DNA from: an uncultured Candidatus Saccharibacteria bacterium
GTDB lineage: Bacteria > Patescibacteriota > Minisyncoccia > Sungbacterales > HO2-52-23
Direction: 5' to 3'
Length of the DNA stretch: 64,000 nucleotides
NCBI GenBank assembly: GCA_964412615.1
Contig: CAYPPK010000001.1
Coordinates: forward strand, 54,983 to 118,982
The notes beneath the pieces were generated by a model. The model did not search any database and was not told the DNA's origin. It was given only the letters and a program-made list of their open reading frames with translations. A program made the translations under genes and the position numbers. The stretch's first letter is position 1. Each line of letters starts with the position of its first letter. Positions 2,858-62,653 of this stretch are shown here, one piece after another.

Positions 2858-4239
2858 CTATTTTTGTGACAATTGAAGATTCAGTTACGGCAAGAAACAT
2901 ATTTTCCACCCCGTTTTGGGAGTCATTTTTGGCAAATAATCGGAGGGAAAGAATAGTGGTGCTGACTCTTCCCGGAAATAAAGAGCGCTATACGAGGATG
3001 TTTGGAACTTCGGCCGGAAACGTTACCGTTGAGGCGCTAAATCCGCAATTCCATTCCCGCTTCGCGGGTTTGGTAACGTCGCTGCAGCGATCGGCGATTA
3101 ACTCCCACACCAATCTTTGGTCAAAAATGCGCGCCTATGAACGCGGCCAGACCGGCTTTATGGTTACGTTTCTCAAGCGGTTTCTTACCTGGATTTTAGG
3201 CGGTTTTCCCCCTTATAAACGTTTTTTGCGATATCTCTTGCTGAAGGCAAAACCCAGCCGAAGAGTAAGGGAAATTTTTAATAAATATAAGCCGGATTTG
3301 CTGCTTGCAAGTTATATCGCCAACTTTAATTTTGACGTTCCTTTGGTCTGCGAGGCCCAAAGAAGGGGAATAAAAACTGTGGGGATTACACGAGGATGGG
3401 ACACCTTGTCCAGTCACGGACTTCTTCGCGTGGTTCCGGACAAGCTAGTAGTGCAAAGCGGATTTCTTAAAAAAATGGCCCTGACTTATCAAGGGGTAAA
3501 AGAGGAAAAAATTACGGTTATGGGCAGCCCCTTTTATGATGTGATGTTCAAGAATCTTCCTTCTCTCTTGGAGGCGCGGGAAAAATTTTTCGCCAAACTC
3601 GGCCTTGATCCCCAAAAAAAGTTTATCCTTTACGGGGCCATGGGAGATTTTCTTTTTCCCTGCGAGGGATGGATTGCCGATGTCCTGGAAGAGTTGATTA
3701 CAAAAGGAGCGATTGCCTATCCGGCTCAAGCGATTTTCCGCCCCCATCCCAAATTTGAAAGCCCGGTGGAACGCCTGGGCAATTTCAAGCATATCCGGCC
3801 GGATCGGGACCTGAAACACTTTGAGAACAACCACGAACGCACGGATACGGAACTTGCGGATACGGGCCATCTGCTGAACCTTATTTACCACAGCGATGTG
3901 GTTGTTACCGGAGCATCCACCATTGCGCTGGACGCCGCGGTGTTCGGGAAGCCGGTGATTTGCGTAGGATTTGACCCCGGCGGATGCCGGCCGAAATACT
4001 GGCACTCGGTTAGGAGATTTTACGACCATTACACGCATTTTGAAGCGTTTATGGAAACCGGCGCGGCCCGCCTGGCCCGCACGCCGGAGGAACTTGCCAA
4101 GCACATCAACGCGTATTTGCCTAATCCCGCGCTGGACGAGGAAAAAAGAAAAGAGGCCGTCCGCCTTTTTGCCGAGCCGCTTGACGGAAAGGCAAGCGAG
4201 CGTCTGGAAAAAATTCTTTCTGAGGAAATTAGGGCATAA
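2854..4239 (+). CDS. putative TagF/capsule-biosynthesis-like glycosyl- or glycerophospho-transferase (paralog of 7827..9206)
   Basis: 461 aa; clear paralogy with ORF 7827..9206 (GI.TVG.T.GWD..SS..LRV.PD); C-terminal GT-B-like region; 4-bp overlap with upstream gene. Confidence 0.45.
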   Translation: MTIFVTIEDSVTARNIFSTPFWESFLANNRRERIVVLTLPGNKERYTRMFGTSAGNVTVEALNPQFHSRFAGLVTSLQRSAINSHTNLWSKMRAYERGQTGFMVTFLKRFLTWILGGFPPYKRFLRYLLLKAKPSRRVREIFNKYKPDLLLASYIANFNFDVPLVCEAQRRGIKTVGITRGWDTLSSHGLLRVVPDKLVVQSGFLKKMALTYQGVKEEKITVMGSPFYDVMFKNLPSLLEAREKFFAKLGLDPQKKFILYGAMGDFLFPCEGWIADVLEELITKGAIAYPAQAIFRPHPKFESPVERLGNFKHIRPDRDLKHFENNHERTDTELADTGHLLNLIYHSDVVVTGASTIALDAAVFGKPVICVGFDPGGCRPKYWHSVRRFYDHYTHFEAFMETGAARLARTPEELAKHINAYLPNPALDEEKRKEAVRLFAEPLDGKASERLEKILSEEIRA

Positions 4240-28100: not shown

Positions 28101-28162
28101 AAGGGCTTGGCCTAAAATTTCAAGTACTGAAGCACGACGAAATTTTAGCTGCCAAACCTTAA

Positions 28163-28313
28163 CCCCGCTCTAATTTTGCAATATAAGACGGCCATGAGAT
28201 ACTATGGGAAAAAGAATTTGATTGTTTATAGCGGCCCGCGTGCAGCGAATAGCTGCTTACCTTTATGGGAGAAGCGGGCCGTATAAAATATATCTCGCAA
28301 AATTAGAGCGGGG
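28163..28313. repeat. hairpin repeat family B, copy 1 (17-bp perfect inverted repeat CCCCGCTCTAATTTTGC, arms 113 bp apart)
   Basis: Left arm CAAACCTTAACCCCGCTCTAATTTTGC is near-identical to 62544..62568; right arm is its reverse complement. Confidence 0.6.
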
Positions 28314-28326
28314 TAGCACAAAATTT

Positions 28327-42806: not shown

Positions 42807-43541
42807 ATGCCGGTACTTGAAGTTAAAAATTTGGTGAAGATTTATAAGGACTTGGAAGCAGTCCGGGATATTTCTTTTGCGGTGGAAGAAGGAGAAATAG
42901 TGGGGCTTCTGGGGCCCAATGGCGCGGGGAAAACCACTACCATTAACATGATCCTGGGGCTGCTTACACCAACTTCCGGATCAATCAAAGCCTTCGGAAA
43001 AGATTTTGGGAAAAATCGGGAAGAAATTTTAGGGAAAGCGAACTTTGCCGCGGTTTATGCCCAACTGCCAGGCAATCTTTCCGTCTGGCAGAATCTTTTT
43101 ATTTTTGCTTTGCTTTATGGCGTACCTAGTCCAAGCGCGAAGGTGCAACAATTACTTGAAGAATTTGACCTGCAACAATTTTCCCATTCCCGCAGCGGTT
43201 TTCTTTCTTCCGGCGAACAGTCCCGGCTTAATTTAGCCAAAGCCTTGCTGAATAATCCCAAACTTTTGCTTTTAGACGAGCCTACTGCTTCCATTGATCC
43301 TAGCAACGCGCAAATTTTGCGGCAAAAAATCAAACAATATGCAAAGCAATTTAAGGCCGGAATTCTTTGGACCTCGCATAATATGAATGAAATTGACGAA
43401 GTATGCGACCGCGTCTTATTTATCTCCCACGGAAAAATCTTGCTGGGGGGCAACCCGCGTGATCTTCCCGGACAATACGGCAAGAAAAATCTGGAGGAGC
43501 TTTTCATCGCGGTAGCCAGAGAACCCTTATCTTTGCAGTAG
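42807..43541 (+). CDS. ABC transporter ATP-binding protein
   Basis: Walker A GPNGAGKTT, signature LSSGEQSR, Walker B LLLDEPT; start likely ATG 42807 (MPVLEVKNL). Confidence 0.8.
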   Translation: MPVLEVKNLVKIYKDLEAVRDISFAVEEGEIVGLLGPNGAGKTTTINMILGLLTPTSGSIKAFGKDFGKNREEILGKANFAAVYAQLPGNLSVWQNLFIFALLYGVPSPSAKVQQLLEEFDLQQFSHSRSGFLSSGEQSRLNLAKALLNNPKLLLLDEPTASIDPSNAQILRQKIKQYAKQFKAGILWTSHNMNEIDEVCDRVLFISHGKILLGGNPRDLPGQYGKKNLEELFIAVAREPLSLQ

Positions 43542-43542
43542 T

Positions 43543-43679
43543 ATGAATCCCACACATAACTTTCGCTGTGCTTTGCACCAGGAAAAGCCAGTGTGGGAAG
43601 GATAATAAATTTACCAAACCTTTCGTGATTTCTTGGAAAATTAAACCAGGTGGATTGCGAAAGTTATGTGTGGGATGAA
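43543..43679. repeat. palindromic intergenic element family A, copy 2 (137 bp)
   Basis: ATGAA-TCCCACACATAACTTTCGC ... GCGAAAGTTATGTGTGGGA-TGAA; terminal inverted repeat extends to 18+ bp in this copy. Confidence 0.8.
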
Positions 43680-44469
43680 TTTCAAACGTGCGTTCACAAT
43701 TTTTCTCCGTCAAATTTTCCTGCTCAAGAGGAGTTTTCACCGCCTGCTCGGAATTTTTTATTGGTCCATACTGGAACTCTTTTTATGGGGCTTTCTTACC
43801 GTGTATCTTAACCGGGTGGGCGAGAACCGCTTAAGTTTTATTACCGTGGTCATAGGCACGGTAATACTTTGGAACTTTTTGAATCGGATTCAGCAGGGAG
43901 TGGCCATATCTTTTCTCGAGGATGTGTGGGCCAGAAATTTCATGAATCTCTTTGCCTCTCCCCTGAACATTAAGGAATATGTGGGAGGATTGGTTCTGGT
44001 CAGTATCGTAAGCTCCACGGTATCTATTGCTGTCATGGCCCTAGCGGCTTGGCTGCTTTTTGCTTACAATCTTTTTCAATTTGGATTTCTGATGCTTCCC
44101 TTCATTGCCGTGCTCTTTTTATTCGGGCTGGCGCTTGGTTTTTACACTACGGCTATGATCTTACGCTTTGGCCCTTCTTCAGAAATTTTGGCCTGGTCCA
44201 TTCCGGCTCTTCTGCCTCCTTTCTCGGGAGTATTTTATCCTATCGCTACCCTGCCCGGCTGGATACAGCCCATCGCCAACCTCATTCCCATCTCTCATGT
44301 ATTTGAAGGCATGAGAACCATAGTAATTTCCGGCACTTTTGACCCCAACCGGCTTATTTTTGCCTCTTTGCTCGCGGCTTTCTTTTTAGTGGTTTCTTAT
44401 TGGCTGCTTTTGCGCACTTACCGTTTTGTGTTGCGTGAAGGACGGCTAACTCGCTTTCAGGTGGAATAA
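43675..44469 (+). CDS. ABC-2 type transporter permease
   Basis: 6 TM helices, ABC-2 family layout; start ATG 43675 is supplied by the right end of the repeat (ORF track started at ATG 43666 inside repeat). Confidence 0.65.
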   Translation: MNFKRAFTIFLRQIFLLKRSFHRLLGIFYWSILELFLWGFLTVYLNRVGENRLSFITVVIGTVILWNFLNRIQQGVAISFLEDVWARNFMNLFASPLNIKEYVGGLVLVSIVSSTVSIAVMALAAWLLFAYNLFQFGFLMLPFIAVLFLFGLALGFYTTAMILRFGPSSEILAWSIPALLPPFSGVFYPIATLPGWIQPIANLIPISHVFEGMRTIVISGTFDPNRLIFASLLAAFFLVVSYWLLLRTYRFVLREGRLTRFQVE

Positions 44470-44522: not shown

Positions 44523-44804
44523 ATGGCATTACTATTAATGTCTTTATTTATGCCTGAAGAAAAGAAAGATATAGCTAAATGGGTTATAGTTTTTATCTCC
44601 TTGGCTGTCGGTTTGGGCGGCGGGTATTATTTTGGTCTTAATCGCGGGGTGGCTAAAGAAAAAGCAGCGGAAGAAGCAAGAAAACTTGAGGCAGAAAAAG
44701 CAGCGGCCAAAGCCGTGAATCCTTTTGAGCAGGTTTCCAGCAATCCTTTTGAAAAAGCCCCAGTAAATCCGTTTGAAAATGTTAAGACGAATCCGTTTGA
44801 ATAA
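44523..44804 (+). CDS. small membrane protein with four C-terminal NPFE repeats
   Basis: 93 aa; TM helix then (V/S/T)NPFE x4. Confidence 0.3.
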   Translation: MALLLMSLFMPEEKKDIAKWVIVFISLAVGLGGGYYFGLNRGVAKEKAAEEARKLEAEKAAAKAVNPFEQVSSNPFEKAPVNPFENVKTNPFE

Positions 44805-44808
44805 CTTT

Positions 44809-46761
44809 ATGCAGAAAAAAAATCTCATATTTGCTTCTGCTATTTTTGCATTAGCGCTAAGCTACTCCGCGTTCATCTATGCGCAGGAGTTCACTTATCC
44901 TGTTCCGGAGCTTGGGAACTGCGAATCGCAGGAAGCATGTAAGGCATATTGCGACGATTCTAGCCACCTTGACGAATGCGTACAATTTGGAGAGAAGCAT
45001 AACCTTCTGGATAAAGAAGAGTTAAAAAAAGCCAAAGAGTTTGAGGGGCAGACCGGCCCCGGCGGATGCCAAGGCGCCAACGAGTGCCGCGCTTATTGCG
45101 AGGACTCCAGCCATCAAAATGAATGTCTTGAGTTTGGCCAACGCAAGGGATTAATCTCCGATCAAAACGCTGAAGTCACTCGGCGCGTGCGCCAGGAAGG
45201 CGGTCCGGGAGGATGCAAAGACGAAAAAGAATGCCGTGCCTATTGCGAAGATCCGGCCAATCTTGATCAATGCTTTGCGTTTGCCGAGACCAATGGATTG
45301 ATTTCCGGAGAAGAAGCCAGCCGCCTTAAAAAAATGGCTTTAGTTTCCGGCCCCGGCGGCTGCAGGGGAAATGAATGCCGAACTTATTGCGAGGATCCCG
45401 GCCACCAACAGGAATGCATTGCGTTTGCGGAGGAAAACGGATTGATGTCTAAAGAAGAGGCGGAGCGGGCCAAAAAATTTGCCGGGAAAACCGGTCCGGG
45501 AGGATGCCGGGGAGAAGAATGCCGCACTTTTTGCGAAAATCCGGAAAGTGCGGGAGGCTGTCTGGATTTTGCGGCCAAAGAAGGATTGATGCCTCCGCAA
45601 GAATTGGAAAGAGCCCGGAAATTTATAAAAGTGTCGCAAGAAGGAGGTCCGGGGGGATGCAAAGGAGGGCAATGCCGGGAATTTTGCGCGGATCCTGCCA
45701 ATCAAAACCAATGTTTTGAGTTTGCCAAAAAGCAGGGGCTCATTAACCCCGCAGAGGAAAAACAGTTTGAGGCGGGAATGAAAATAAGGGAAAAATTGGA
45801 AACGACCGGCGGTCCGGGAGGATGTAAAAATGAAAATGACTGCCGCGCGTATTGCGCCGATCCTGATCGCGTGGAAGAATGCGTGGCCTTTGGCGCTGCG
45901 CATGGCGGCATTCCCGAAACGGAAGCGCGTGAAATGCTGAAAAATTTTCAAGAAAAGCGTTTTGAATTGCGCCAGGAGTTTCGGCCGCCGGAAGATTTTG
46001 CCCGATTTAAAGAGGAGGCGGAAAGAAGGTTTGAGGAATTTAAGCAGCTGGAAATACAATTTCGCAATCGGCCGGAATTAATGGGTCCACCCGCGGGCGG
46101 AGAATTTCCCGCGGGCAGCGGAGCTGAAAGCGGGCAAGTCGGGCCCGGCGGATGTTCTTCAGCATCGGAGTGTATAAAATATTGTTCCGAGCATAAAGAA
46201 GAATGCTTTAGTTTCGGACCGGCAGGAAAACCAGACGTGCTGCCTCCGCAGGGGGGAATTCCTCCCGGACAAGATGGATCTGCCGGCAGATCGGATTTTC
46301 CGCAACTGCGCCAGGATGCCGTGCAATTACGTCCTAGATTAGAACCACGGCCGAAAGATTTAAAAATTGAGCCGCAGCTCAAGAAAGAATTGGAGCAGCG
46401 TTTTCCTGAAGAATTTGAAAGGCGTTCGCCAGAAAATTTTTCGCCTTCTCCCGAAAATATTCAGCCACCCCAGATGAGAACTTTTCCTGCTCCGCCGGAA
46501 GGATTCAAGCCGTCAGATTTACCGTCTGTTTCGCCAAGACCGGAATCATTTTCGCCCCCAGCTGATAATTTCTCGCGTCCGCCTGACAATTCTTTCCTGC
46601 CGCCACCGGTATCGGCACCTCTGCCCAGCGGTTCATTTGAGCAGCAATTCACTCCCGCACCGGACAGCACCGGAGGAGAACAAGCACCGCCGCCTCCGCC
46701 TCCCAGCAGCAGCTTAAATAGCGGTTTTCTGGCCAGTATTATCCATTTCTTTGTCTGGTAA
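44809..46761 (+). CDS. secreted protein with about 9 tandem Cys-rich repeats (GPGGC..ECR.YCEDP....C..F) and Pro-rich C-terminal region
   Basis: Signal peptide MQKKNLIFASAIFALALSYSAFIYA; about 40-aa unit with 4 conserved Cys repeated about 9 times (tandem 120-bp DNA repeats 45040..45900); C-terminal P/S-rich region and hydrophobic tail. Confidence 0.5.
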   Translation: MQKKNLIFASAIFALALSYSAFIYAQEFTYPVPELGNCESQEACKAYCDDSSHLDECVQFGEKHNLLDKEELKKAKEFEGQTGPGGCQGANECRAYCEDSSHQNECLEFGQRKGLISDQNAEVTRRVRQEGGPGGCKDEKECRAYCEDPANLDQCFAFAETNGLISGEEASRLKKMALVSGPGGCRGNECRTYCEDPGHQQECIAFAEENGLMSKEEAERAKKFAGKTGPGGCRGEECRTFCENPESAGGCLDFAAKEGLMPPQELERARKFIKVSQEGGPGGCKGGQCREFCADPANQNQCFEFAKKQGLINPAEEKQFEAGMKIREKLETTGGPGGCKNENDCRAYCADPDRVEECVAFGAAHGGIPETEAREMLKNFQEKRFELRQEFRPPEDFARFKEEAERRFEEFKQLEIQFRNRPELMGPPAGGEFPAGSGAESGQVGPGGCSSASECIKYCSEHKEECFSFGPAGKPDVLPPQGGIPPGQDGSAGRSDFPQLRQDAVQLRPRLEPRPKDLKIEPQLKKELEQRFPEEFERRSPENFSPSPENIQPPQMRTFPAPPEGFKPSDLPSVSPRPESFSPPADNFSRPPDNSFLPPPVSAPLPSGSFEQQFTPAPDSTGGEQAPPPPPPSSSLNSGFLASIIHFFVW

Positions 46762-56174: not shown

Positions 56175-57629
56175 ATGTCTATGCCGAAAGAAGGCAGGAT
56201 ACATCTAAATAAATACGCTCCGCCGCCTCCCGAGTTGCCGGTCTACCAGCAAATAGATCCGCGGGAGGTTTCTTTTATCGGCCGCACCAATTACGAGGCG
56301 CCTCTGGAATCCAAGAAATATATTTTTGGCATCAGGCGCAAAGACCGCCGGCGCCATGTTTATATCGTGGGCAAGTCCGGAGTGGGCAAATCAAAACTTT
56401 TGGAACTTATGGCACGCCAGGATATTGCTTACGGCCATGGGGTTTGTTTGATTGACCCGCACGGAGACGTGATAGAAGAAGTTTTAAAATTTATTCCGGA
56501 AGAGCGCGTTGGAGACGTGATTTTGATTGATCCGGCCGACGCCGATTGGCCTATTTCTTTTAACCCCTTGCAAAAAGTGCCGCCTGATTTAAAGCATCAA
56601 ATGGCGCAGGGTTTGATTGAAGTCATGGAAAAACAATTCGGAGCCAACTGGACCCCGCGCCTGGAGCATGTTTTTCGCTTTACAACCTTGGCTTTATTGG
56701 ATTATCCCGAGGCGACTTTGCGGGGTATGATCTCCATGCTAACTGACCGACCGTATCGCCAAAAAGTCATTGAATACATTACCGATGACATGGTAAAGCG
56801 CTTTTTTGCGGTAGAATTCGCCGATTGGTCGGAGAAGTTTGATACTGACGCCATCATTCCTTTGGTAAATAAACTCGGCCAATTTCTTTCCATGCCCATG
56901 CTGCGCAATATTTTTGCCCAGAAAGAAAATAAAATTGACTTGGAGGAGATAATGAACAATAAAAAAATCCTTCTGATTAACCTTTCCAAGGGCAAACTGG
57001 GAGAGGAAAATTCCAGTTTCTTCGGTTCCATGTTTATTACCAAGATCAAACAGGCCGGCATGGCGCGGGCCGGCATGCCGGAGGAAAAACGAACGGACTT
57101 TTATCTATATGTAGACGAGTTCCATAATTTAGTAACCGATTCTTTTACCAATCTTTTTTCTGAAGCGCGCAAGTACGGGCTTAACCTTACCGTCGCTCAC
57201 CAATATACCGCTCAGCTTTTACCTGAAGTGCTGGCTACTGTTTTGGGTAATGTGGCCAATATTATTATTTTCCGGGTTGGGGGCGATGACGCGGCCAAAC
57301 TGGAATCCGAAATGACTCCGGTTTTCAAGGCCAAAGACATGATTAACTTAGGCACGCAGGAATTTTATATCAAAGAAACAATTGACGGAGAGACCTATGA
57401 TCCTTTTTCTGCCGAAACTCTTAAGATTCTTCCGGCTCCGCATCCTTCTTACAAAAGCAAAATTATAGAGGCTTCCCATCAAAAATACGCCATGCACGTG
57501 GAGGAAGTTAAAAAAATGCTCAAAGAGGAAGAAGAGGCGGTGATTTTCAGGAAAAATGGCAATACTTCTTCTGCCACTTCCGCCGACAATGCGAATGGCT
57601 ACGAGTCTCCACCCGAACCACTGATTTAA
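56175..57629 (+). CDS. VirD4/TraG/TraD-like P-loop ATPase (DUF87/TraG-D_C type, 'type IV secretion DNA-binding domain' family)
   Basis: Walker A GKSGVGKS, Walker B FYLYVDEFHN, AHQY motif; paralog of 60508..62505. Confidence 0.6.
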   Translation: MSMPKEGRIHLNKYAPPPPELPVYQQIDPREVSFIGRTNYEAPLESKKYIFGIRRKDRRRHVYIVGKSGVGKSKLLELMARQDIAYGHGVCLIDPHGDVIEEVLKFIPEERVGDVILIDPADADWPISFNPLQKVPPDLKHQMAQGLIEVMEKQFGANWTPRLEHVFRFTTLALLDYPEATLRGMISMLTDRPYRQKVIEYITDDMVKRFFAVEFADWSEKFDTDAIIPLVNKLGQFLSMPMLRNIFAQKENKIDLEEIMNNKKILLINLSKGKLGEENSSFFGSMFITKIKQAGMARAGMPEEKRTDFYLYVDEFHNLVTDSFTNLFSEARKYGLNLTVAHQYTAQLLPEVLATVLGNVANIIIFRVGGDDAAKLESEMTPVFKAKDMINLGTQEFYIKETIDGETYDPFSAETLKILPAPHPSYKSKIIEASHQKYAMHVEEVKKMLKEEEEAVIFRKNGNTSSATSADNANGYESPPEPLI

Positions 57630-57631
57630 TT

Positions 57632-57802
57632 ATGACTGCAAATCTCACGAAACGCATTTGGATTTTTTTATCCGCCTATGGTGTCTTTTTTGCGCTGCTT
57701 TCCTTTAGTCAGGAAATTTGGACCAAAGGTCTTTGGTGGAAAGGACTAGGCGCGTTAGCCCTTGGTTTTATTTTATACCGGGTTGTGATACATAAAGTGT
57801 AA
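57632..57802 (+). CDS. small hypothetical membrane protein (56 aa, below ORF-track cutoff)
   Basis: ATG 57632 to TAA 57800-57802, TAATG overlap with next gene; two hydrophobic segments. Confidence 0.25.
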   Translation: MTANLTKRIWIFLSAYGVFFALLSFSQEIWTKGLWWKGLGALALGFILYRVVIHKV

Positions 57803-59559
57803 TGAACCAAGAAACCAAAATTTGCCAAAATTGCAAACAAAACTTCATCATTGAGCCGGAAGATTTTGCGTTCTATGAAAAAATTAAAGTTCCTCCGCCG
57901 ACTTGGTGCCCGGAGTGCAGATTTCAGCGGCGGGCAGTATCCAGAAACGAGCGCAATCTTTTTCGGGTGAAAGACGCGCATGACGGGAAAGAAATCTTTT
58001 CCGGCATTCCGCCGCAGGCCAACCTAAGGGTTTATGAGCGTGATTTCTGGTGGTCAGACGGTTGGGATCCCATGGACTACGGTCGTGATTATGATTTCTC
58101 GCGGCCTTTCTTTGAGCAGTTTAGAGAACTGATGCACGAAGTACCATTTCCTGCACGCAATATACTTCGCCTGATAAATTCGGATTATTCTGATAATTGT
58201 GGAGATTCGAGGAACTGCTATTTGTGTTTTAACGTCGGGAATATAGAAGATTCTCTGTATATGGTTAGTGCCTATAACTGCCGGAATTGTTCTGACATTA
58301 GTATGACTTCAGAAACCGAACTTTCCTATGATTCTTTTGAAGTCGGCAATTCGTACAAGATATTTTTCTCTCATCATATAGATGATTCAAACAATATCTG
58401 GTTTTCTAAGGACCTTACGGGCTGTTCTTATTGTTTTGGATGTATAAATCTGCGCGGCAAGCAGTACTACATTTTTAATCAGCCGTATTCTAAAGAGCAA
58501 TATTTTGAGGAACTCAATAGAATAGATCTTGGCTCCTACGCAAATTTAGTTTCTATCGCTAAACGTGTAGAAAGTTTTTGGCAAAGTAATCCGAAAAAAT
58601 ATTATCATGGAGTACACAATGTTAATTCTACCGGAGACCATATCCATAACAGCAAAAACGTCCAGTGGTGTTTTGGCGTAACCGAGACCGAGGACTCAAA
58701 ATATTGCCAGGAAGTTTATAGAGGAGTGAAAGATTCCTATGACTATATGGACTGGGGGGATAAGTGTGAATTAATATACGAAGCCTGTGAGGTTGGACTT
58801 GGCGGGAGAGAAGTCAAATTTTCAACAGTATGCTGGCCGGAGGTTTTTGATATTGAGTATTCTATGAGATGCGGGTCGTCCTCTAATCTATTTGGTTGTA
58901 TTGGACTACGCAACAAGCAATACTGCATCTTGAACAAGCAATACTCAAAGGAAGATTATTTTAATCTTCGGGAAAAAATTATTAAACACATGGACGAGGT
59001 GCCGTATCAGGATAATAGAGGACATATTTATAAATATGGCGAGTATTTTCCTCCGGAATTTTCCTTAATTGCTTATAACGAAAGCTTAGCGCAAGATTAT
59101 TTTCCGCTAACAAAAGAAGAAGCACTCCGGCAGGGATACTTATGGCGAGATCCAAGCCCTCACGAGTTTCGAACCACAATTGCTGCCGAGGAACTTCCTG
59201 ATCATATAAAAGATGTAACCGACTCCGTCTTGAAAGAAATAATAAAATGTTTCAGTTGCGGCAAGGCTTATCGTTTTATTGAGCCCGAATTTTCTCTTCT
59301 CAAACAAAATGGAATCCCTCTCCCGCGGCTTTGTTGGATTTGTCGGCACAATCGTCGCCTAAAACTCCGTAATTATCCCCACTATTTTAGGAGAAAATGT
59401 ATGTGCGGTGGGACAAAAAGCAAGGATGGAAAATATGAGAATCAAGCCTCTCATTTTCACGGCCAGCAGCATTGCCCGAATGATTTTTTTACAACATTTA
59501 AATCTGACCGGCCTGATATAGTTTACTGCGAGCCATGTTATCAAGCAGAAATTCTATGA
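57802..59559 (+). CDS. Cys-rich protein with homologous N- and C-terminal zinc-ribbon modules and internal duplicated LFGCI.LR.KQY motifs, hypothetical
   Basis: 585 aa; CQNC...CPECR at N-terminus and CFSCG...CWICR at C-terminus flanked by similar FIEPE...P(P)..C motifs; about 30 Cys total. Confidence 0.4.
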   Translation: MNQETKICQNCKQNFIIEPEDFAFYEKIKVPPPTWCPECRFQRRAVSRNERNLFRVKDAHDGKEIFSGIPPQANLRVYERDFWWSDGWDPMDYGRDYDFSRPFFEQFRELMHEVPFPARNILRLINSDYSDNCGDSRNCYLCFNVGNIEDSLYMVSAYNCRNCSDISMTSETELSYDSFEVGNSYKIFFSHHIDDSNNIWFSKDLTGCSYCFGCINLRGKQYYIFNQPYSKEQYFEELNRIDLGSYANLVSIAKRVESFWQSNPKKYYHGVHNVNSTGDHIHNSKNVQWCFGVTETEDSKYCQEVYRGVKDSYDYMDWGDKCELIYEACEVGLGGREVKFSTVCWPEVFDIEYSMRCGSSSNLFGCIGLRNKQYCILNKQYSKEDYFNLREKIIKHMDEVPYQDNRGHIYKYGEYFPPEFSLIAYNESLAQDYFPLTKEEALRQGYLWRDPSPHEFRTTIAAEELPDHIKDVTDSVLKEIIKCFSCGKAYRFIEPEFSLLKQNGIPLPRLCWICRHNRRLKLRNYPHYFRRKCMCGGTKSKDGKYENQASHFHGQQHCPNDFFTTFKSDRPDIVYCEPCYQAEIL

Positions 59560-60507: not shown

Positions 60508-62505
60508 ATGGCCAAAAACGAAAAAGATATTATTTATATAGGCAAATGCAATTTCCGCGGCAATGAGCGGGTTTTTGGCATTAAAACCAAAGATCGCCGC
60601 CAGCATATGTATGTAATCGGCAAGACCGGAGTGGGCAAGACCGCGCTTCTTAAAAATTTAGCGCTGCAAGATATCCGAGCGGGAAGAGGTTTGGCCATAA
60701 TTGATCCGCACGGTGAATTCGTGGAGGAAGTTCTCTCGCAAATTCCGCCAGAGCGAACCAACGATGTAATTTATTTCAATCCCGTTGATACGGAATTTCC
60801 CATCGGATTTAATGTTTTGGAAGTACCGGATCAAAAATACAAACACTTGGTAGTGTCTGACTTGTTGGGCATTTTTACTAAAATCTGGGCCAATGTCTGG
60901 TCGGCCCGCATGGAATACATTCTGCAAAATTGCATCATGGCCCTTTTGGATACTCCCGGCACCACGCTTTTGGGGATTCCGCGTCTTTTGGTAGACAAGG
61001 ACTATCGGCAAAAAATAATTGCCAACGTCAAAGATCCGGTAGTAAAATCCTTCTGGGTGCATGAATACGAGACCTGGCGGGATCAATTTAGAAACGAAGC
61101 CATAGTTCCAATTCAAAATAAGGTAAACCAGTTTTTAAATACCGCTTTTATCCGCAATATCGTAGGCCAGCCCAAATCCACGCTTAATATCCCAGAGATC
61201 ATGAATTCCCGGAAGATCCTTCTGGTTAATGTTTCCAAGGGAAGAATAGGAGAGGATAATTCCGCGCTCTTGGGCGCCATGATTATTACCAAAATACAAC
61301 TCGCGTCCATGGAACGCGTGAGAATTCTGGAAGACGAACGGGTGGATTTTTATTTATATGTGGATGAGTTCCAGAATTTTGCTACCGATTCTTTTGCCAG
61401 CATTTTATCCGAAGCAAGAAAATACCGACTAAACATTATTATCGCGCATCAATATGTAGGGCAGTTGGTAACTGATGTCTCCACTAAAGTCCGCGACGCG
61501 GTATTTGGTAACGTAGGAACTATGATTACATTTCGGGTGGGAGCTACGGATGCCGAATTTCTGGAGCCGGAATTTACTCCCGAGTTCATGGGACAGGATA
61601 TAATAAATCTTCCCAACCATCATGTTTATTTGAAATTAATGGTGGATGGAGTTACTTCTCGGCCGTTTTCTTCCGTTACGCTGCCCCCTTTGCAGTTTGA
61701 AACCGATCCGGAAGTGCGGGAGAAAATCATCAAGGTTTCGCGGCAGCGTTATGCTAAACCAAGAGTAGAAGTGGAAGATAAAATTTCACGCTGGAGTGGA
61801 CTTTCTGGAGAATTAGAGGAGAGGGGGAGCAGCGGAACCCCAGCTCTGCCGCCAGGCCAACTTATAGAAACTCCTTGCTGGAACTGCGGCAAAACCGCCA
61901 CCGTGCCGTTTAAGCCCGATGGCCGCCGGCCGGTTTATTGCATGTCCTGTCTTAAGCAGATAGAAGAGGGCAAACTTATTCCTATTCCCGAACGCATGCC
62001 TAAAGTTGGCCGGGAAAAATACAGCCAGTCTCTAGAAGGACTGGGAATTGAATTTGGAGCAGCAAGTAAGGAGACTCGGCCTTCTTATAACCAAAACCAA
62101 GATAGAAAGGAGCCAATGGCAGTTCCTGATAGAATTGGGAATCGTCCCGCTATGCCCAAAGGAAATAATTTTCAGCGCAATAAGCGACGGGAGGATGAAC
62201 GCGTGAAAACGCCCAGCAAAAAGGAAGAAATAAAAATGGGGATACGCTCGCAACCCGTGGTGCGGTCGGCTTCGGGAGTAAAGCCTATTTCACTTTCTTC
62301 TTTGGAGCCCAAAATAGAAGAAGAAAGTCCGACGAACGAAGAAAAAAAATCTCCAAATAAATTTCCCGGATTAAAAGAGCTTTTGCGCGAAGTACTCAAA
62401 ACTGATCAAAATCATAAAGAAGAAATAAAAACGACAGAAAATAAAAAAAGAGAAGCAAAAGAAAATAGCAAAATAGTAAAACCCGGAGATGTAATAAAAT
62501 TTTAA
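60508..62505 (+). CDS. VirD4/TraG/TraD-like P-loop ATPase with C-terminal zinc-ribbon and Lys/Glu-rich tail (paralog of 56175..57629)
   Basis: Walker A GKTGVGKT, Walker B FYLYVDEFQN, AHQY; C-terminal CWNCG...CMSC zinc ribbon and low-complexity K/E-rich tail. Confidence 0.6.
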   Translation: MAKNEKDIIYIGKCNFRGNERVFGIKTKDRRQHMYVIGKTGVGKTALLKNLALQDIRAGRGLAIIDPHGEFVEEVLSQIPPERTNDVIYFNPVDTEFPIGFNVLEVPDQKYKHLVVSDLLGIFTKIWANVWSARMEYILQNCIMALLDTPGTTLLGIPRLLVDKDYRQKIIANVKDPVVKSFWVHEYETWRDQFRNEAIVPIQNKVNQFLNTAFIRNIVGQPKSTLNIPEIMNSRKILLVNVSKGRIGEDNSALLGAMIITKIQLASMERVRILEDERVDFYLYVDEFQNFATDSFASILSEARKYRLNIIIAHQYVGQLVTDVSTKVRDAVFGNVGTMITFRVGATDAEFLEPEFTPEFMGQDIINLPNHHVYLKLMVDGVTSRPFSSVTLPPLQFETDPEVREKIIKVSRQRYAKPRVEVEDKISRWSGLSGELEERGSSGTPALPPGQLIETPCWNCGKTATVPFKPDGRRPVYCMSCLKQIEEGKLIPIPERMPKVGREKYSQSLEGLGIEFGAASKETRPSYNQNQDRKEPMAVPDRIGNRPAMPKGNNFQRNKRREDERVKTPSKKEEIKMGIRSQPVVRSASGVKPISLSSLEPKIEEESPTNEEKKSPNKFPGLKELLREVLKTDQNHKEEIKTTENKKREAKENSKIVKPGDVIKF

Positions 62506-62554
62506 GGGCTTTGTCCAAAAATCCGAGCCATCAGGCGACGGATTTTTGGTTACA

Positions 62555-62653
62555 AAACCTTAACCTCGCTCTAACTCAAAGAAATACTCAGATGTCCGAT
62601 CGGTAAGCCGAAGGCGTTGCCGCGAGATAACCCTATACCGCAAAAGACGGAGT
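62555..62653. repeat. hairpin repeat family B, copy 2 (degenerate)
   Basis: Left arm CAAAACCTTAACCTCGCTCTAACTC about 90% identical to 28153..28179; right arm GAGTTAGGGCGTGG is imperfect reverse complement; lies between convergent genes (TraG-like ATPase and efp) and may act as a bidirectional terminator. Confidence 0.5.

Follow-up and report, generated by a model that had tools for sequence, protein, structure and literature searches.

A start-codon-inserted, MITE-like hairpin element in an ABC transporter operon and its relatives encoding candidate GIY-YIG nucleases

A 64-kb stretch of DNA from an uncultured Candidatus Saccharibacteria bacterium (contig CAYPPK010000001.1, positions 54,983 to 118,982; hereafter the window) contains an ATP-binding cassette (ABC) transporter operon in which the ATPase and ABC-2 permease genes are separated by a spacer with long inverted repeats. 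This spacer, which we call copy 2, is the second of three related copies in the window. It has been inserted at the permease start codon with duplication of the flanking bases, the hairpin formed by its ends covaries across its relatives, and the same ends enclose GIY-YIG nuclease genes elsewhere. Copy 2 is most probably a non-autonomous member, of the kind known as miniature inverted-repeat transposable elements (MITEs), of a family of tiny mobile elements with hairpin ends spread across Patescibacteria. A complete element of the family is about 285-300 bp long, with ends T-CCCACACATAAC...GTTATGTGTGGG-A that pair over 18-20 bp; its only gene encodes a single-domain GIY-YIG protein of 84-93 amino acids (aa).

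Copy 2 fills a site that is empty in orthologous operons

Copy 2 lies exactly between the ATPase stop codon and the permease start codon and measures 137 nt including its direct repeats. The ATPase open reading frame (ORF) ends ...TTGCAG TAG, with TAG at 43539-43541, followed by a T and then by ATGAAT and the left arm; at the far end, the terminal A of the right arm (43675) doubles as the first base of the permease start codon. A preliminary description of this region had placed the element precisely between the two transporter genes, and the Pfam matches of the flanking genes (PF00005 and PF01061) together with these stop and start positions bear that out. It had also quoted two 18-nt arms, CCCACACATAACTTTCGC (43549-43566) and GCGAAAGTTATGTGTGGG (43657-43674), both of which match, although the perfect inverted repeat is actually 20 nt long, ATCCCACACATAACTTTCGC (43547-43566 and 43657-43676), with 90 nt between the arms. 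Copy 2 is thus short, terminally repeated and non-coding in the manner of a MITE, holding only a 20-codon ORF.

A search with the permease protein gave graded orthologues, and we inspected the DNA of four of these loci. The closest, L050 (90% identity), reads ...CTTCAA TGA T ATGAGCCCC, that is, stop codon, T and ATG, with the spacer absent. The sites in L052 (74%) and L053 (71%) are also empty, the latter with an ATGA overlap of stop and start. The fourth, L051 (83%), carries 109 nt at the same start codon, and these belong to a different element, ATGAA-T-CCCGTTAGTGAC...GTCACTAACGGG-ATGAA. The earlier proposal that the spacer is an inserted element therefore stands: three orthologous sites are empty where the window is filled, as expected of a MITE, and the identical spacer in all related genomes that would have spoken for an ordinary intergenic region does not occur among the four loci. 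The precise element-free site in this organism would read ...TAGTATGAATTTCAAACG. An identical locus is also present in two Logan contigs, which thus represent the same strain as the window; a first metagenome scan with the permease protein found no relatives.

The element in L051 (660-775) represents a second repeat family, seen also in L010 (5690-6012), with arms CCCGTTAG(TGAC/AGCC), termini TCCC...GGGA and the same ATGAA start-codon position. The L051 copy is 109 nt long and gene-less, and the L010 copy encloses a GIY-YIG gene beside an ATGAA start. Apparently, the permease start-codon site has been hit twice, by two repeat families.

Within the window, matches to the 18-mer with up to three mismatches number five, compared with 0.02 expected, and none of 100 shuffles reaches five. 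Exact matches to the 12-nt core number six and form three pairs (15321/15431, 43549/43663 and 59562/59648), and all three copies read ATGAA-T-CCCACACATAAC...GTTATGTGTGGG-ATGAA, with the direct repeat bracketing the inverted repeat. In each, the downstream gene starts at the second ATG, and the first ATG marks where this start codon would lie if the element were absent; the upstream repeat of copy 3 overlaps the stop codon of the preceding gene (ATGA). The copies lie 16-28 kb apart and their interiors are mutually unrelated, the best interior identity of copy 2 being 57%.

The direct repeats are target-site duplications at start codons

One scan of species-representative genomes for two exact 12-nt cores 74-104 nt apart gave 43 loci, which with the three window copies amount to 50 elements. 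Apart from the window copies, these lie in metagenome-assembled genomes (MAGs) assigned to Paceibacterota, Azam-, Sungii-, Yanofsky- and Wolfebacteria or labelled Saccharibacteria; there are 49 gene-less elements of 98-128 nt, and solo hairpins besides. The 5-mers flanking the elements are identical in 37 of the 50 and differ by one base in another six. They vary by locus, being mostly ATGAA but also ATGGA, ATGAG, GTGGA and ATTGA, and among host starts other than ATGAA the upstream copy matches in 11 of 13. Closely related elements can have different repeats (ATGGA in L004 and ATGAA in L006; ATGAG in L007 and ATGAA in L038), so that the repeat is a property of the site, not of the element, and is a target-site duplication.

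The sites are those of gene starts. In 46 of the 50 elements, the downstream repeat opens an ORF of 60 aa or more, and when the elements are removed in silico the site resembles a gene start (a long ORF downstream and an in-frame stop within 15 codons upstream) in 74% of cases, compared with 8.3% of background ATG[AG][AG] sites in the same loci. The host genes that the copies precede are unrelated to each other. The viral contigs searched contain no copy of the 18-mer. Short copies that are nearly identical occur at different sites within one genome or MAG (100% identity in L042, 98% for L008/L029, 90% for L018/L021), which indicates that gene-less copies have spread recently.

A duplication of 4 bp (TGAA and the like), which gives the element mutually pairing termini T...A, is slightly favored over one of 5 bp. 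Termini C...G with a downstream GTG codon are present in L013, in L079/L096/L098 and in one solo hairpin in L033, and L080 and L099 have TTGAA upstream and ATGAA downstream; with a 4-bp duplication, the host start codon would receive its first base from the element. We also considered, and rejected, a 2-bp (AT) duplication, which would make the permease one residue longer than its 264-aa orthologues and fails for the ATGGA/ATGGA and ATGAG/ATGAG pairs. Translational bypassing, of the phage T4 gene 60 or yeast mitochondrial byp type, was considered for the matched repeats too, and was set aside because the repeats extend two bases past the codon, the element lengths have no mod-3 bias, and duplication explains the repeats.

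The two identical L042 copies, each of 121 nt (2726-2846 and 3742-3862), lie 1 kb apart. One of them is flanked by ATTCA/ATGAA, with an outward-facing start codon on each side, an arrangement that suggests either recombination between copies or a divergent gene pair.

The hairpin is under selection

We aligned the ends of 52 elements to look for covariation in the stem. Positions 13-18 each show four to five standard pair types (for example TTGCAC/GTGCAA, AAAGAC/GTCTTT, GAGGAC/GTCCTC and TTTCGC/GCGAAA), and 92% of all stem cells are paired. Slid registers fall to 30-52%, pairing ends after 18 bp, and none of 500 shuffles reached the observed covariation. Variants found alongside show compensated changes in the core arm as well (CCCTCACA/TGTGAGGG, CATAGC/GCTATG, CCCCCACA/TGTGGGGG and CATACC/GGTATG). 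The hairpin is thus under selection. Folded as DNA, the copy 2 region reaches -28.8 kcal/mol (z = -5.3), which none of 200 shuffles equals. G.T and A.C mismatches are balanced at 5:5 in the covarying part of the stem, so the constraint is not visibly specific to the sense RNA, and it agrees at least equally well with folding at the DNA level or with recognition of both ends.

A regulatory role in RNA is nonetheless the first alternative to weigh: a conserved cis-acting RNA, whether an intra-operon attenuator, a stabilizer or a processing hairpin, could have been selected to set the ATPase:permease ratio. Such an RNA would account for the covarying stem, for its extent (it covers the 18 nt that precede the permease start codon as well as the A and U of that codon) and for the very stable RNA fold of the region (-51.8 kcal/mol, z = -4.95, with none of 200 shuffles equally good), and a perfect 20-bp RNA duplex is a substrate of the RNase III type, as with the Correia elements of Neisseria. 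However, the spacer is missing from the orthologous operons in L050, L052 and L053, its counterparts precede unrelated genes and have unrelated interiors, the even mismatch count gives no sense-strand signature, and flanking target duplications are foreign to a regulatory RNA. A terminator and promoter scan of 43543-43679 reported no terminator-like site and nothing in the element, and with a 90-nt loop and ATGAATTTCAAACG in place of a T run after the stem, copy 2 does not have the form of an intrinsic terminator. Rfam searches of the whole window at gathering thresholds, and of the locus at E up to 1, yielded only one chance-level match, to a long noncoding RNA, and a tRNA/tmRNA scan found none. 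We consider a selected regulatory RNA unlikely, and copy 2 is better seen as a mobile element that has, at most, side effects on expression.

The interior of the elements is oriented despite their symmetric ends. TGTGGG is present inside 13 of the 49 short copies (0.43 expected), always 16-43 nt from the 5' end and thus 13:0 on one side, and CCCACA in none; in the longer elements described below, the GIY-YIG ORF runs parallel to the host gene in 43 of 46. Such a bias is in line with strand-specific movement. The internal copy of the terminal motif noted earlier in copy 2 at about 43588 is real, being GTGTGGG at 43591-43597, but its interpretation as a trace of past rearrangement gives way to that of an oriented, family-wide feature. 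It could form part of a compact left-end hairpin.

Solo hairpins, with arms only 2-3 nt apart, are found at L022:1574-1599, L033:1740-1766 and L017:5007-5030; they have ATAAA/ATAAA or ATGAA/GTGAA flanks, one has the compensated arms CATAGC/GCTATG, and they may be excision footprints or minimal copies. We also considered a coupling mini-ORF that would run from the upstream ATG to a TGA overlapping the host ATG. The interior is free of stops in 13 of 49 copies for this frame, compared with 5 and 8 for the other forward frames and 8, 3 and 13 for the reverse frames, and given this lack of enrichment the mini-ORF was dropped as a selected feature. Every copy of exactly 122 nt has the coupling frame open.

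Complete elements encode a small GIY-YIG protein

Longer coding elements with the same ends, as expected if the short copies are MITEs, were identified through both protein and DNA searches. In L029, a 285-nt element has the same arms, ATGAG/ATGAG flanks and an ORF that begins at the upstream repeat (MSPTHNLR...); its 92-aa product matches PF01541 at residues 10-76 (E = 2.3e-16). A further protein, P0069 (85 aa), matches PF01541 at residues 1-68, and no domain of another fold was detected in the GIY-YIG proteins of these elements. A protein search returned 93 homologous clusters of 50-106 aa, 15 of which start with MxPTH, the translated left arm, and two of which end in LCVG or LCGG, the translated right arm. 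Six of the seven homologues inspected in DNA sit within the repeat at a start codon (L029, L046, L048, L049, L054 and L060), the L046 element lying between nusA and tig and the L054 element ahead of pilM. L033 is the one exception: at 3893-4150 it has a GIY-YIG gene of the same family that lacks a recognizable left arm and lies directly upstream of a 122-nt gene-less element, an arrangement that could reflect decay or a composite origin.

Searching metagenomes for arms spaced by 250-280 nt yielded 48 elements of 282-302 nt that share these arms and flanks, and every one holds a GIY-YIG ORF, intact in 42 (84-93 aa) and decayed in six. The upstream repeat provides the nuclease start codon (MNPTHN...) in nine of the 42 intact elements, and an internal ATG does so in the other 33. 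In 29 of the 42, the nuclease stop codon ends exactly 12 nt before the host ATG, which places it at stem positions 13-15, where TAA pairs with TTA.

A subgroup of short elements (L031/L022/L019/L017/L045) keeps sequence from the 3' part of the nuclease gene (z = 5-8 in local alignments), whereas most short elements, including all three window copies, have no recognizable nuclease-gene sequence. The 20-codon mini-ORF of copy 2 begins at the upstream ATG, and its first six codons, the translated left arm, give the same N-terminus (MNPTHN...) as the GIY-YIG proteins of full-length elements.

A possible route of movement and its weak points

Insertion at a gene start codon duplicates 4-5 bp ((A)TGAA at copy 2); the upstream repeat keeps the original translation-start context of the host gene, and the downstream repeat, directly beyond the hairpin, serves as the host start codon. 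The chances seem about even that the GIY-YIG protein recognizes the folded ends on single-stranded DNA (ssDNA) and drives strand-specific movement. Copy 2 has no detectable GIY-YIG gene, and its movement would need nuclease supplied from elsewhere. Once inserted, the 20-bp stem would occlude the start codon of the permease, and ribosomes ending at the ATPase stop codon, or translating the mini-ORF, would unwind the left arm and free that start codon, so that the two genes would roughly retain their ancestral stop-start coupling. Alternatively, the perfect duplex could undergo RNase III-type processing. A stem that takes in the start codon's A and U could plausibly alter permease translation or mRNA processing as a by-product.

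Several observations weigh against this interpretation or limit it. The 64-kb window contains no GIY-YIG gene, and the interior of copy 2, aligned locally with four full elements, gives a nonsignificant score (z = 1.9), so that the argument for its descent from a full element comes only from the ends and flanks in common. Upstream and downstream repeats match exactly in only 14 of 46 long elements, and the invariance of the 12-nt core is partly a retrieval effect, since the search pattern demanded exact cores. The nuclease and transposition activities of the family are predictions from sequence. GIY-YIG enzymes are hydrolytic, and we know of no joining step or strand-transfer activity among them, while terminal inverted repeats with a 4-5-bp duplication are the classic signature of DDE transposition, which raises an unseen transposase as a possible mobilizer.

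On that alternative, copy 2 and its relatives would be ordinary MITEs moved in trans by a DDE-type transposase, with the GIY-YIG gene a passenger or an independent selfish gene using the same ends. The form of the termini and duplications, and the lack of a known strand-transfer activity for GIY-YIG nucleases, speak for it. Against it, a GIY-YIG ORF is the sole content of all 48 elements of 282-302 nt that have these ends, and the second repeat family likewise encloses a GIY-YIG gene. No unpaired or widely spaced arms bounding a larger element were seen in approximately 400 kb of fetched loci, and the free variation of arm positions 13-18 while pairing is kept fits recognition of structure better than sequence-specific binding by a transposase. 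We therefore regard a DDE transposase as an improbable mobilizer, and a family of hairpin-ended elements linked to its own GIY-YIG gene as the better description.

Relationship to Ssn nucleases and other hairpin elements

Our literature searches returned no description of the element type of copy 2 and only one relevant paper, on the Ssn proteins (Chenal et al. 2025, Nat Commun, PMC11893778). Ssn proteins are nucleases of 94 aa with a single GIY-YIG domain. They bind a hairpin repeat, the NTS (CGTCATTCCCGCGMAVGCGGGAATCYRG), and cut the adjacent ssDNA site-specifically and on one strand only, while double-stranded DNA and RNA are not attacked; their genes are flanked by hairpin repeats, and the NTS-ssnA-NTS architecture was likened to insertion sequences, with no duplications or empty sites reported (PMC11893778). 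Patescibacteria are not mentioned in the main text of that paper. Over 64 aa, P0069 shares 39% identity (E = 2e-12) with the catalytic core of the Neisseria gonorrhoeae SsnA homologue, whose gene is followed by two NTS hairpins; P0069-type proteins have comparable similarity to the UPF0213 (1zg2, E = 1.8e-4) and SLX1 structures, and differ at the C-terminus, which makes them no more than candidate members of the Ssn clade (cd10448). The SsnA homologue and NTS repeats used here come from PLSDB entries NZ_CP119140.1 and NZ_CP119142.1, two 2.17-Mb N. gonorrhoeae chromosomes filed as plasmids.

The two systems share a small (~90 aa) single-domain GIY-YIG protein, a gene bracketed by hairpin repeats, and many gene-less intergenic copies. 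Their termini are also alike, with TCCC...GGGA and a CAT/ATG flank (CGTCAT|TCCC in the NTS and TTCAT|CCC on the complementary strand here). In contrast to Ssn, however, the gene lies within one long-range hairpin of two half-sites and not between two complete hairpins, and the elements have locus-specific 4-5-bp direct repeats, empty orthologous sites, a start-codon location and, in some cases, ORFs that start at the duplicated host ATG. The C-terminal motif is SLKLHAQGLRRLKERL here and KKWNRAWKLQLIEENN... there, and the host phylum is Patescibacteria. On inspection, the published SRM pattern (HGTCWY...RNCYNB) does not match, since the flank is TTCAT and not GTCWY and the stem is longer (18-20 bp); the SRM allows a loop of 0-5 nt, and the loop in elements of 98-302 nt is far larger.

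A domesticated system of the Ssn/NTS type, in which immobile, host-maintained hairpins let an Ssn-like nuclease restrict incoming ssDNA during natural transformation, is very improbable: such a role has been shown for NTS/SsnA in N. meningitidis, with repeats clustered around envelope genes (PMC11893778), and the three window copies do flank envelope-glycan-type genes (a DegT aminotransferase with a GT2 gene, an ABC-2 exporter and a cytidylyltransferase), but this association is based on three copies only, and presence or absence in close relatives, near-identical copies across loci and locus-specific duplications point to recent mobility.

Other small elements resemble the family in part. Correia elements are likewise approximately 100-155 bp long with terminal inverted repeats, a target duplication and no coding capacity, and are co-transcribed with adjacent genes as a long hairpin; they differ in having a TA duplication and conserved interiors and in not being tied to start codons, unlike the unrelated interiors and start-codon sites seen here, and we know of no cognate enzyme for them. 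IS200/IS605 elements, with their REP/RAYT and PATE relatives, provide a precedent for hairpin-dependent, strand- and orientation-specific movement via ssDNA with a short target and tiny non-autonomous derivatives, but use an HUH/Y1 transposase with a covalent intermediate and have neither element-spanning terminal inverted repeats nor a target duplication. A parallel between Ssn-type modules and IS200/IS605-type elements has been drawn previously (PMC11893778).

Integron attC sites are imperfect hairpins of 57-141 nt that act as folded single strands, with a variable interior and conserved ends, RYYYAAC...GTTRRRY, that recall ...CATAAC...GTTATG... here. They need an IntI integrase and an attI platform, stand in arrays 3' of cassettes and do not duplicate start codons, whereas, on the comparison of core sequence and position made here, the window copies are 5' of genes and 16-28 kb apart, and their ACATAAC and GTTATGT are each one base off. 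Free-standing GIY-YIG homing genes (phage seg genes and I-TevI relatives) are similarly selfish nuclease genes wedged between host genes, but have extra DNA-binding domains, spread only to homologous sites and lack terminal repeats and duplications; the elements described here hit many unrelated genes.

Implications

The Ssn paper likened hairpin-flanked nuclease genes to insertion sequences, without evidence of movement (PMC11893778). The elements described here are nuclease-plus-hairpin modules of the Ssn type, and what is new relative to that report is start-codon targeting and the signatures of mobility: orthologous sites with and without an element, duplications that vary by locus, and nearly identical copies in a single genome. 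Tentatively, and with slightly more doubt than confidence, we suggest that the complete forms could be the smallest autonomous bacterial transposable elements yet: some 290 bp of hairpin plus an 85-aa Ssn-like GIY-YIG ssDNA nuclease that would insert strand-specifically at start codons, borrow host start signals, and hand translation back 12 nt later. If so, they would provide the first evidence of true mobility in Ssn-type nuclease/hairpin modules, and of transposition with target duplication driven by a hydrolytic GIY-YIG enzyme.

The hosts are Patescibacteria, with small, gene-dense genomes, and insertion at start codons suggests how an operon survives an element, namely by regeneration of the start codon. 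Many small ORFs annotated as 'GIY-YIG nuclease family' in Patescibacteria genomes can be re-read as mobile-element genes, and the nuclease/hairpin pairs are candidate reagents for site-defined ssDNA cutting. Gene callers are likely to misplace start codons at these elements. In the window, a mechanical ORF list starts the permease at ATG 43666 within the right arm (ATGTGTGGGATG), and the orthologue N-termini favor 43675.

Features of the window

The coordinates of the three copies, the parts of copy 2 and its flanking genes are given in Table 1.

Table 1. Elements, element parts and flanking genes, in window coordinates
Feature	Coordinates	Strand	Remarks
Copy 1, 122-nt element, ATGAA/ATGAA	15315..15447	+	At the start codon of a DegT/DnrJ/EryC1 aminotransferase gene; divergent intergenic region
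ABC transporter ATP-binding gene, upstream host gene	42807..43541	+	PF00005, E = 1.5e-32; translation
Upstream direct repeat of copy 2, ATGAA	43543..43547	+	Original start-codon position, one base past the ATPase stop; the L050 empty site reads TGA-T-ATGAG
Upstream duplication under the 4-bp reading, TGAA	43544-43547	+	
Mini-ORF from the upstream ATG, MNPTHNFRCALHQEKPVWEG	43543..43605	+	20 codons; stop TAA at 43603-43605
Left arm of copy 2	43548..43566	+	Terminal T, 12-nt core CCCACACATAAC (43549-43560) and copy-specific extension TTTCGC (43561-43566), which covaries
Interior (loop) of copy 2, 90 nt	43567..43656	+	Detectably similar neither to the GIY-YIG gene nor to copies 1 and 3
Internal partial right-arm copy, GTGTGGG	43591..43597	+	Can pair locally with left-arm CCCACAC
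Right arm of copy 2	43657..43675	+	Extension GCGAAA (43657-43662), core GTTATGTGTGGG (43663-43674) and terminal A (43675)
Downstream direct repeat of copy 2, ATGAA	43675..43679	+	Working permease start codon; N-terminus aligns with full-length 264-aa orthologues
ABC-2 permease gene, downstream host gene	43675..44469	+	PF01061, E = 2e-11
Copy 3, 98-nt element, ATGAA/ATGAA	59556..59664	+	At the start codon of a cytidylyltransferase-like gene

The window also has a different inverted-repeat element at 28162-28314, with 24-nt arms, ACCCCGCTCTAATTTTGCAATATA / TATCTCGCAAAATTAGAGCGGGGT, that are 92% complementary and separated by a 105-nt loop. It ends 12 nt ahead of an ATGAAA, has no obvious direct repeat and no Rfam match, and its left flank and left arm reappear at 62536-62574 with 82% identity. 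A 266-nt direct repeat of 71% identity (56964-57229 and 61213-61478) has one copy in a 484-aa ORF and the other in a 665-aa gene for a TrwB/TraG-like coupling protein; the two copies are probably paralogous ATPase domains.

Two large ORFs have no Pfam match. One, at 57802-59559, codes for a cysteine-rich product of 585 aa with many CxxC pairs, and its stop codon is the one overlapped by the upstream repeat of copy 3. The other, of 662 aa (44773-46761), contains a motif of approximately 23-34 nt, ending CCGG(C/G)GGATG, that is repeated at 45035, 45473, 45791 and 46132, and the encoded protein is therefore probably repetitive.

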